In this document: positions 22,585 to 24,455 of the stretch, piece by piece | Numbering within the stretch: the stretch's first letter is position 1 | How the letters are laid out: every line of letters begins with the position of its first letter | Assembly: GCA_035760845.1 (NCBI GenBank) | Contig: DASTSD010000036.1 | Location: forward strand, 1-24,456 | Origin: Candidatus Saccharimonadales bacterium | Lineage (GTDB): Bacteria > Patescibacteriota > Saccharimonadia > Saccharimonadales > Saccharimonadaceae | Direction of reading: 5' to 3' | Length of the DNA: 24,456 nucleotides | Translations under genes and position numbers: made by a program | The notes under the pieces: generated by a model | The model's database searches: none | Told to the model about the DNA's origin: nothing | The model's input: the letters and a program-made list of their open reading frames with translations, nothing else

Positions 22585-22866
22585 ATGACCGAGCGAGAAT
22601 CCTCACGTCGCCACGATAGCGAACCAACGGTAGAAAAGGGCATCGACAGGGAAGTGCTATTCGCAAAACTCGTCAGCCCGGAACTGGTGGAAAAGTTTGA
22701 TTTTGAAGTAAGCGAGGAGGACCTAGCGTGGGCCGCCGAGGAGCTTCTTACCGACGATAACGTCGAGCTTATGGAATGGCTGGCGTCACTCGCTATAGCA
22801 AACGGCGCCGACCACGACGAGTTTTTTGCGTGGCTGGGTATTGAAACCGAGCCCGAAACAGAGTAA
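22585..22866 (+). CDS. Acidic hypothetical protein
   Basis: 93-aa ORF starting directly after VKOR stop. Confidence 0.6.
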   Translation: MTERESSRRHDSEPTVEKGIDREVLFAKLVSPELVEKFDFEVSEEDLAWAAEELLTDDNVELMEWLASLAIANGADHDEFFAWLGIETEPETE

Positions 22867-22894
22867 AATACACACCAGAAACACTCCTCGCGTG

Positions 22895-23070
22895 AGGAAT
22901 AGCGGCCATCACCCGCGAACGTTCCAGGAAGAAAGGGAAATCCCGAGTAGAACCTGGCGCACCACGGCGTTACAGTGACAAACAAGTGCTAAGAAGAACC
23001 TCTTTTTAGAAGCTGGATGGTACCGTCCGCGTATGCGGATTCCAGCATCTAACAAGAGGTTTTTGTGTTT
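22895..23070 (+). ncRNA. T-box riboswitch, Ile (AUC specifier), ultrashort Stem I type
   Basis: Stem I GCGG-ccAUCac-CCGC (22902-22916); Stem II CCAGG-AAGAA...GAGUAGAA-CCUGG (22924-22957); IIA/B CGC..GCGUUA..GUG; antiterminator GCUGGA-UGGUACC-GUCCGC.GCGGAU-UCCAGC (23012-23046); upstream of the ileS operon. Confidence 0.88.
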
Positions 23071-23085
23071 TAAGAAAGGACCGCC

Positions 23086-23610
23086 ATGCAAGATATTATT
23101 ATTCGCGATACGACCGCCGACGACCTATTAGCGCTGCGGACGACGCATGGTCAGTCATGGCGCGACACCTACCCGAACGAGGCCGAGGGCGTCTCGCGCG
23201 AATGGGTTGAAGCGCGGACGGCGGGGTGGATCACACCCGAAGGGATCGAAAATTCCAAAGAACACGTAAAGGATATTTACGGTCATCCAAACCATCTTCA
23301 CAAAATAGCGGTTGAAGGCGACAAGGTTGTCGGTGTGGTCCATGTAGCAAAAACCCCCGAAAAACAGCACCTTCATGCGCTATACATCGCAAAAGAATAT
23401 TACGGCAGCGGCCTCGCCCAGCGACTTATGGAGATAGGACTGGCGTGGGCTGACCCGCATCGGCCGATTGACCTGCAGGTCGCTACCTACAACGAACGGG
23501 CCAAGGCTTTCTACCGCAAATACGGATTCGAAGAAGTACCGGGCACCGAAGAAAAATTCGCCGAAACCATACCAGTCGTCACCATGGAAAGAAAAGGAGA
23601 GTCAGCATGA
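23086..23610 (+). CDS. GNAT family N-acetyltransferase
   Basis: LHALYIAKEYYGSGLAQRL (AcCoA-binding motif A), LQVATYNERAKAFYRKYGF; AAAGGA RBS. Confidence 0.92.
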   Translation: MQDIIIRDTTADDLLALRTTHGQSWRDTYPNEAEGVSREWVEARTAGWITPEGIENSKEHVKDIYGHPNHLHKIAVEGDKVVGVVHVAKTPEKQHLHALYIAKEYYGSGLAQRLMEIGLAWADPHRPIDLQVATYNERAKAFYRKYGFEEVPGTEEKFAETIPVVTMERKGESA

Positions 23611-24455
23611 AATTCAAAGGAAACACCCGCCGCCGCGCACTCGAGTACGAAAAAGACCTCGTCGTCCAGTGGAAAAAGAACAAGACATTTGAAAAATCCG
23701 TCGAGCAGCGACCAAAAGAGGACAGCTACGTTTTTTACGACGGCCCTCCATTCATCACCGGCGTACCGCACCACGGAACGCTCCTTAGCTCGATCGTAAA
23801 AGACGCCATTCCGCGCTACCAGACGATGCACGGCAAGCGTGTCGAGCGCGTGTGGGGTTGGGACTGCCACGGCCTGCCTGCCGAGGTATTTACCGAAAAG
23901 AAACTCGGCATCAAAGACCGCCGCGACATCGGTACCAAAATCAGCCTTGAAGAATACATCCTGACCTGCCGCGACAACATGGTGCAAACCGGCAACCTAT
24001 GGGAAGACACCATCGACCGCATCGGCCGTTGGGTCGACTTTAAGGGCGCCTACAAAACCATGGACAAAGACTACATGGAAAGTGTCTGGTGGGCGTTCAA
24101 AACCCTGTACGAAAAGGGGAAGATCTACGAAGGCGAGCGCGTGCTCATGTATTGTACCCGCGACGCGACGCCGCTTTCGAAGGCCGAGGTCACGATGGAT
24201 GCCGGCGCCTACCAAGACGTCACCGATCCGAGCGTGTTCGTGAAATTCAAGCTGACTGATAGCGACGCGTTCCTTTTGGCTTGGACGACCACGCCGTGGA
24301 CGCTGCCAGCAAACACCGCTGTCGCCGTGAACAAAAACTTTGACTATGTCGAAGTGGAACAGGCCGGCCAAAAGCTGATCTTGGCAAAAGATTTGCTCGA
24401 GAAGGTGATGCAAGACGAAAAGCACCAGCCGCTTGAATACAAAGTTGTCCGCGAA
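23607..24455 (+). CDS. ileS: Isoleucyl-tRNA synthetase, type 2; 3' truncated by window
   Basis: Manual translation from ATG 23607 (AAGGAG RBS 23594-23599): FYDGPPFITGVPHHGT, GWDCHGLPAE, RIGRWVDF, YMESVWW, AWTTTPWTLPAN. Confidence 0.96.
   Translation, partial: MKFKGNTRRRALEYEKDLVVQWKKNKTFEKSVEQRPKEDSYVFYDGPPFITGVPHHGTLLSSIVKDAIPRYQTMHGKRVERVWGWDCHGLPAEVFTEKKLGIKDRRDIGTKISLEEYILTCRDNMVQTGNLWEDTIDRIGRWVDFKGAYKTMDKDYMESVWWAFKTLYEKGKIYEGERVLMYCTRDATPLSKAEVTMDAGAYQDVTDPSVFVKFKLTDSDAFLLAWTTTPWTLPANTAVAVNKNFDYVEVEQAGQKLILAKDLLEKVMQDEKHQPLEYKVVRE

Follow-up and report, generated by a model that had tools for sequence, protein, structure and literature searches.

A PaiA-like acetyltransferase gene in a variable slot between a divergent isoleucine T-box leader and ileS in Saccharibacteria

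Why should a gene for a GNAT N-acetyltransferase stand between an isoleucine (Ile) T-box riboswitch and ileS, the gene for isoleucyl-tRNA synthetase? The question is raised by a 24,456-nt stretch of DNA (contig DASTSD010000036.1 of assembly GCA_035760845.1; hereafter the window), whose source genome belongs to the Saccharibacteria of the candidate phyla radiation (CPR) and comprises 832 kb on 153 contigs. The initial annotation had suggested a T-box-controlled enzyme for quality control against isoleucine analogues or for resistance to IleRS inhibitors, and had offered insertion of a passenger gene as an alternative. Our comparisons favor that alternative, which fits best because most relatives have nothing at the site between leader and ileS, and many unrelated genes occur there in others. 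The gene is more likely a passenger than an enzyme specific to isoleucine. More fully, we consider it likely, though well short of certain, that it encodes an intact, acetyl-CoA-dependent accessory small-amine N-acetyltransferase, carried as cargo in a variable slot and co-expressed with ileS, with no evident link to isoleucine.

The GNAT gene is intact and is the first gene after the leader (Table 1). Its start, the ATG at 23086, is the first start codon past an in-frame stop, and its end is joined to ileS by an ATGA tetranucleotide (23607-23610), in which the GNAT TGA (23608-23610) overlaps the ileS ATG (23607-23609). This is how the gene had been described at first, although the position from which the feature had been counted, 22895, belongs to the RNA leader and not to the GNAT open reading frame (ORF). 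In relatives, GGAGAA takes the place equivalent to the AAAGGA in front of the GNAT gene, 5-20 nt past the U-run of the leader. The downstream ORF has the N-terminus of a class I aminoacyl-tRNA synthetase (aaRS; PF00133, E 3e-55); compared with the ileS starts of 19 relatives it shows 62-82% identity, and the named relatives are Saccharibacteria or Saccharimonadales. Most relatives in which the GNAT gene abuts ileS likewise carry AAAGGAG at the 3' end of that gene. The C-terminal R-K-G-(D/E) of the protein is conserved (window 23590-23610; 3' ends of loci L002-L023), and its codons AGAAAAGGAGA double as the ileS Shine-Dalgarno (SD) sequence. The 3' end of the gene looks like a case of dual constraint, by coding and by a translation signal.

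The Ile T-box that had been read upstream of the GNAT gene proved to be real, though divergent: the leaders covary among relatives, and both specifier and bulge match tRNA-Ile. An Rfam cmscan of the window returned no T-box, either at the gathering threshold or at E <= 10, and a genome-wide search with RF00230 gave a single sub-threshold match (22877-23047, 29.7 bits versus a gathering score of 93). As the Rfam score stayed below gathering, the identity of the leader was established by comparison. The leaders of 17 genomes align well, with compensatory changes in 20 of the 29 pairs called by RNAalifold. Across these leaders AUC is invariant within the 7-nt loop, UGGNACC is invariant except at N, and both A1 and A2 covary. 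AAGUG followed by a hairpin of 7-9 bp and AA is present in all 17; four registered pairs of Stem III are 100% paired, with UG/UA/GC/AU covariation. This arrangement is the RRRxG-Stem III-AA motif previously defined for T-box discriminators (PMC7583486). The only tRNA-Ile of the genome has the anticodon GAU and the 3' end ACCA, matching AUC and UGGU of the leader. With R1, a covariance model built here, the window leader scores 160.9 bits, and the model detects a single leader in each of 118 of 151 class genomes, almost invariably immediately 5' of ileS. Searches of the full-text literature turned up no paper that deals with T-boxes in Saccharibacteria.

Table 1. Positions of the leader, the GNAT gene, ileS and associated signals in the window
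Feature	Position	Strand	Remarks
Small acidic ORF, 93 aa	22585-22866	+	occupies a second variable slot, which separates VKOR from the leader promoter
Promoter-like site TTGAAA-17-TAAAAT	22841-22869	+	10/12 consensus matches; just 5' of the leader; putative
Ile T-box leader	22899-23071	+	specifier hairpin, Stem II, pseudoknot region, purine motif, Stem III, A1/A2 with T-box bulge, outer helix, U-run
Specifier hairpin, 4 bp	22902-22916	+	AUC at 22908-22910, 7-nt loop
Stem II with AGUAGAA S-turn sequence	22924-22957	+	
Pseudoknot region (IIA/B-like)	about 22958-22981	+	
AAGUG purine motif	22984-22988	+	
Stem III	22989-23009	+	
Outer helix	22997-23004 with 23054-23061	+	encloses A1/A2; 5' strand common with Stem III
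Helices A1/A2	23012-23046	+	T-box bulge UGGUACC at 23018-23024
U-run	23060-23071	+	
Promoter-like site overlapping the GNAT start	23070-23099	+	its -10 falls past the GNAT ATG
Shine-Dalgarno-like AAAGGA of GNAT	23075-23080	+	5 nt 5' of the ATG; read from sequence
GNAT N-acetyltransferase gene, PaiA-like subclass	23086-23610	+	174 aa; from ORF list, Pfam, conserved motifs, AF2 model and fold neighbors
ileS Shine-Dalgarno AAGGAG	23594-23599	+	within the final GNAT codons (R-K-G-E)
ileS, 5' part	23607-24455	+	leaves the window at its edge; start overlaps the GNAT stop (ATGA)

Our survey of the class revealed what the position between leader and ileS usually contains. The sample was even (151 genomes, ileS being found in 138), and leader-ileS distances were counted by hand in the roughly 112 genomes that have leader and ileS on the same contig. 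In the usual state, seen in about 87 of these, the leader lies 0-40 nt from ileS. Five genomes have a spacing of 56-109 nt, and about 20 have 197-3400 nt of intervening cargo. Most of the latter (15 of about 20) come from the window's own family, which has 22 genomes with a leader; among these the slot is empty in seven, holds this GNAT in four and holds other content in 11. Occupancy differs even inside single genera.

The remaining cargo is diverse and mutually unrelated. It comprises a CAP-domain protein together with a GDSL lipase, inositol-monophosphatase-family (IMPase) proteins (in three genomes), an AAA_33/zeta-like P-loop kinase, ASCH-OmdA and OmdA proteins, a pyrophosphatase-like protein, YunG-UDG, a cupin, several small ORFs without family, and a run encoding a nucleoside deoxyribosyltransferase-like protein, TfoX, a NUDIX protein, a different GNAT and a further NUDIX protein. 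In one genome the slot is filled by a restriction/defence island (L034, G050:C1:17000-21000) of T5orf172, an EcoRI-type adenine methylase, an unknown ORF and GmrSD-HNH, whose last gene abuts the ileS start. Many of these cargo genes overlap the ileS start by 4 nt, as the GNAT does. A tblastn search of four slots that hold small ORFs (G026, G110, G116 and G122) found no GNAT remnants.

The GNAT itself is a recurrent occupant. A search of species genomes with a back-translated query gave 24 loci of Saccharibacteria type with the GNAT, 18 of them (19 counting the window) between the leader and ileS. The arrangement, whose uniqueness to this genome would on the initial annotation's own terms have refuted its proposal, is thus shared by other loci without being the rule, and the distance from GNAT stop to ileS start is -11 to +35 nt in 13 of the 19 loci including the window. 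Among the loci selected for the GNAT, the upstream nrdR-orf85-VKOR junctions are all tight, while the distances from VKOR to the leader and from the leader to ileS are both variable.

Several observations argue against a tie between the gene and ileS. Orthologues of 42-47% identity are located elsewhere and without the leader (L005, L006, L013 and L020), one of them after a TauE gene and a serine recombinase, and other, more distant homologues are fusions with NadD or lie 3' of UppP. In one slot the GNAT is a pseudogene (L024:2929-3299), having lost the CoA-binding core by an internal deletion and acquired a frameshift; in another it is duplicated, as a tandem GNAT-GNAT fusion of 367 aa (L021:2977-4080). 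Moreover, the GNAT tree conflicts with the tree of the adjacent IleRS N-terminus. In approximately unbiased (AU) tests, with groups chosen after the trees were seen, the IleRS data reject a grouping of the window with L001 (p-AU 3e-6) and the GNAT clade of the window with L001-L004 (p 1e-82), and the GNAT data reject a grouping of the window with L017 (p 0.014). Leader, GNAT and VKOR fragment alike nevertheless have L001 as their closest relative, so that either the cargo or its flank has been exchanged by recombination. These conflicting trees, the leader-free orthologues, the decay seen in L024, the patchy occurrence and the variety of cargo in the slot all favor an accessory gene that uses a permissive site.

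How would a gene in this slot be expressed? A consensus scan of the window returned a putative promoter just 5' of the leader (Table 1), and TATAAT-like boxes stand in the equivalent place at the leaders of relatives. The scan found no other promoter-like site able to serve the whole of the GNAT gene or ileS, and no promoter-like or terminator-like site between the two genes. The promoter-like site at 23070-23099 is unable to serve the full GNAT gene because its -10 lies beyond the ATG. The U-run is followed by the GNAT ATG after 18 nt, and in all 17 aligned relatives the first ORF is directly 3' of the leader. By its anatomy, the GNAT gene is predicted to form one operon with ileS behind the Ile T-box, and its co-induction with ileS by uncharged tRNA-Ile is a prediction well supported by both anatomy and comparison.

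In the mechanism that we infer, transcription would begin at the leader promoter. When no uncharged tRNA-Ile is present, the outer helix, the A1/A2 hairpin and the U-run would terminate it 18 nt before the GNAT gene, whereas uncharged tRNA-Ile(GAU), pairing with AUC and UGGU, would stabilize Stem III against the outer helix and allow read-through, placing the GNAT gene and ileS on a single mRNA. Translation of ileS would then proceed from the SD inside the last GNAT codons, by way of the ATGA overlap. Co-induction of the GNAT would thus be a consequence of the insertion site and not of a role in isoleucine metabolism.

The leader differs from the textbook switch in how its terminator is built. 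The outer helix is wrapped around A1/A2 and, rather than displacing the antiterminator, it competes with Stem III (22984-23071), giving a nested terminator; the combined outer helix and A1/A2 have a folding energy of -38 kcal/mol in the window and -22 to -39 kcal/mol in relatives, followed by UUUUUGUGUUUU. A terminator that wraps the tRNA-binding hairpin is likely to represent the OFF state, with Stem III needed for ON. The nested terminator is combined with an ultrashort Stem I, a type that has been tied to translational rather than transcriptional T-boxes (PMC7583486). The actinobacterial ileS T-boxes (Sherwood et al. 2015, reviewed in PMC7583486) resemble this leader in their very short Stem I, which carries the specifier and lacks an elbow-binding platform, as well as in the Stem II S-turn, the IIA/B region, RRRxG-Stem III-AA and the arrangement of A1, 7-nt bulge and A2. 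They act on translation through an SD sequestrator, whereas the window leader has a long hairpin (A1/A2 plus outer helix) and then a U-run, which suggests transcription attenuation through a swap between Stem III and the outer helix. A sequestrator was considered here too, with UCCAG of the A1 3' strand pairing with the GGAG of an SD; this pairing suits some relatives but fails where A1 has UCUGAC, and the terminator is preferred.

What the enzyme acetylates was approached through its family and its fold. The protein scores above gathering with three Pfam models (PF13673, 53.4 bits versus 23.6; PF00583, 49.5 versus 20.7; PF13508, 47.1 versus 27). NCBIfam offers no equivalog; its best sub-threshold match is rimI (TIGR01575), followed by others to PRK10562 and PRK10514. 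The 134 homologues at E <= 1e-10 all have generic names, and the family has so far been found only in contigs of Saccharibacteria type. Its conserved residues include an N-terminal S-W-x-D-T-Y-x-N-x-x-x-G-V, G107-x-G109, N136 and Y143; in Y-Y-G107-S-G109, G107 is invariant and G109 at least 90% conserved, and Y143 is invariant. The AlphaFold2 (AF2) model has a predicted local distance difference test (pLDDT) score of 95.7 with the GNAT elements in the expected order, in keeping with a mixed alpha/beta fold that has a V-shaped CoA site at beta4/beta5 and a G-x-G pyrophosphate loop, and all 999 of the 999 aligned PDB chains are of GNAT type, with Z up to 19.7.

The fold places the protein in a PaiA-like subclass. 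In the fold searches, made with VIA and also with Foldseek, the top five VIA matches all belong to the PaiA/LcGNAT/Ta0374 group, the best being Thermoplasma acidophilum Ta0374/TaPaiA (Z 19.7), LcGNAT (18.8), Listeria innocua 3fnc (18.3) and Bacillus subtilis PaiA (17.9), while the generic GNAT background of RimI, Naa50/60 and phosphinothricin and tabtoxin acetyltransferases lies near Z 16. The PaiA-like structures compared were B. subtilis PaiA (1tiq), T. acidophilum Ta0374/PaiA (3f0a, 3k9u), LcGNAT (8osp), Streptococcus mutans 4e2a and L. innocua 3fnc, and as best structural matches they superpose with Z 17.9-19.7 and a root-mean-square deviation of 2.3-2.8 Å over 155-161 residues. Like them, the protein is a single domain with the order beta1-alpha1-alpha2-beta2-4-alpha3-beta5-alpha4-beta6-beta7. 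It has no beta0, and the strand at 162-169 past beta6 of the model is the C-terminal beta7 of the subclass. It differs from them in sequence (17-23% identity) and in the SW-DTY-N--GV motif that its own family bears at the N-terminus. The LcGNAT paper grouped PaiA, 4e2a, TaPaiA and Ard1 as a polyamine-type subclass with the extra beta7 (PMC10416765). LcGNAT itself, from Lactobacillus curiae, is associated with a guanidine riboswitch and acetylates canavanine, preventing its misincorporation. The window gene shares this association with a riboswitch, although here the RNA is a T-box, and the conserved Tyr of its AFYRKYGF segment (Y143) would fall at about the position of the catalytic Tyr142. 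The protein is acidic as a whole (pI 5.71, 21 K+R versus 28 D+E, net -7). From this acidity, and from the PaiA-like fold at about 20% identity, we infer that the acceptor is most likely a small cationic amine, either a polyamine or a basic amino-acid analogue.

Several observations weigh against a simple passenger. Purifying selection is evident (dN 0.16 with saturated dS versus L001), the gene has kept its place in the slot even as its sequences diverged to about 35% identity, 13 of the 19 loci retain the close spacing to ileS, and a pure passenger might be lost faster. The pairwise distances of GNAT and IleRS are also weakly correlated (Spearman 0.24). The long stay under purifying selection makes the GNAT a functional, long-lived occupant. 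The substrate class, moreover, is read from fold similarity at 17-23% identity, and the nearest solved relatives include LcGNAT, a riboswitch-controlled enzyme that detoxifies an amino-acid antimetabolite. This last point, together with the anatomy that puts the gene under an Ile T-box, the long retention in the slot and the origin of the sequencing runs that contain window DNA (mainly soil, rhizosphere and compost), can be cited for T-box-induced detoxification, in which the GNAT would acetylate an isoleucine antimetabolite or IleRS inhibitor that raises uncharged tRNA-Ile. Given that LcGNAT, of the same structural group, protects translation from an antimetabolite, this reading keeps a modest probability, but we regard it as unlikely. 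Most genomes have an empty slot, and in others it holds unrelated genes, a restriction/defence island among them; orthologues occur with neither T-box nor ileS nearby; the GNAT has decayed to a pseudogene in L024; and neither residues nor family membership speak for branched-chain substrates, acidity and PaiA-like fold suggesting cationic ones. The quality-control or resistance role put forward at first therefore finds no tie to isoleucine in sequence, fold or distribution. The specific chain in which a soil or rhizosphere antimetabolite would block charging of tRNA-Ile, open the T-box and so induce the GNAT that inactivates it, built by analogy with LcGNAT, is a similarly small chance. If the GNAT does act on an isoleucine antimetabolite, it would to our knowledge be the first known T-box-induced detoxification enzyme. 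The slot between leader and ileS could also be a selected expression site that places accessory genes under starvation control.

About as doubtful is a protein acetyltransferase of the translation apparatus (RimI/YjaB/Naa-like), modifying a ribosomal protein, IleRS or another translation factor. The top NCBIfam matches, all sub-threshold, are of this kind (rimI, PRK10562 and PRK10514), JGI labels homologues as 'RimI-like', Naa60, RimI, YjaB and HP0935 are among the fold matches, and none of the four GNATs of the genome passes the RimI cut-off (this GNAT has 39.7 bits in the genome search). However, the rimI score of 39.6 bits compares with a cut-off of 86.4, protein acetyltransferases are weaker fold matches than the PaiA-like group (Z about 16 versus 18-20), and the absence of the GNAT from most relatives with an equal ileS operon is a poor fit to a core role in translation. 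That the leader acts elsewhere, or that the GNAT gene and ileS have their own transcription starts and so escape the T-box, is improbable. The sub-threshold Rfam score, the departure of the nested terminator from a textbook switch and the promoter-like site overlapping the GNAT start speak for it, but the -10 of that site is past the GNAT ATG, the gene follows the U-run by 18 nt as the first ORF does directly in 17 of 17 relatives, the leader abuts ileS where cargo is absent, and all T-box hallmarks examined are present, covary and match the tRNA-Ile of the genome. Hardly credible, finally, is a toxin of the TacT/AtaT/ItaT/KacT type that acetylates Ile-tRNA, a role already judged less likely in the initial annotation. 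ItaT does acetylate Ile-tRNA, and the GNAT adjoins ileS. Yet no antitoxin-like ORF flanks the gene, the 220 nt upstream being RNA leader and the downstream gene ileS; the nearest small ORF (93 aa) precedes the promoter and has no family. The protein is acidic as a whole, where tRNA binding would call for a basic surface, a single-sequence PDB search returned no such toxin at E <= 1, and the family profile reaches KacT at 24 bits only, over the common CoA motif at residues 93-158. No tRNA-acetylating toxin is among the 50 Foldseek or 50 VIA matches listed, a blank that we do not use as evidence.

With the GNAT read as cargo, the enzyme itself is ordinary and its position is the informative part. 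In these tiny genomes with few promoters, foreign genes have repeatedly entered between a T-box leader and its essential synthetase gene. They are arranged so as to leave ileS translated, and they inherit control by tRNA-Ile charging. A previous study reported that 8% of T-boxes precede genes of unknown or amino-acid-unrelated function (Wels et al. 2008, PMC2494555). The present gene resembles these in having no evident amino-acid function, but it is inserted between leader and cognate aaRS gene, is coupled to the latter by ATGA, and occupies a variable cargo slot that recurs throughout a bacterial class. The locus is thus an addition to the known T-box regulons, namely a recurrent cargo slot between a leader and its synthetase gene.

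Integration hot spots occur between conserved core genes. The slot is similar in its conserved flanks (leader and ileS 5' end), variable content, patchiness within genera and conflicting gene trees. Unlike the usual hot spots, it lies inside a riboswitch-controlled essential operon, and its cargo comes under control that depends on tRNA charge. The cargo must therefore preserve ileS expression, by ATGA overlaps and SD sequences in its 3' ends. These considerations make riboswitch context alone an unsafe guide to gene function; the locus also supplies naturally occurring T-box-driven cargo genes with which to study how accessory genes of the CPR come to be expressed.

On the other side of the leader, the small acidic ORF occupies the second variable slot. 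It has no Pfam family, its only homologue among the relatives compared is in L001, and PADLOC gave no defence-family match for it or for the GNAT. The distance from VKOR to the leader ranges from ~60 to 1900 nt across relatives, with other content there.

A few further observations concern the relatives. L001 (DATJIC010000048.1) comes from a metagenome-assembled genome labeled Verrucomicrobiia; its gene content (VKOR, leader, GNAT and ileS) looks saccharibacterial, and the contig may be mis-binned. The IleRS N-termini of the class fall into two bands of identity to that of the window, 62-81% and 43-51%, which suggests two types of IleRS in Saccharimonadia. At L055 (G005:C12, 2447-3514, minus strand), a GNAT homologue forms the C-terminal part of a 355-aa fusion with a NadD-like nucleotidyltransferase, NadD being recognized by eye from its N-terminal motif. 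At L054 (G003:C8, 2488-5281, minus strand), the C-terminal part of a class I aaRS, an S-adenosylmethionine (SAM) methyltransferase and a distant GNAT homologue form an operon with 4-nt overlaps, which is another instance of accessory genes added onto a synthetase gene.

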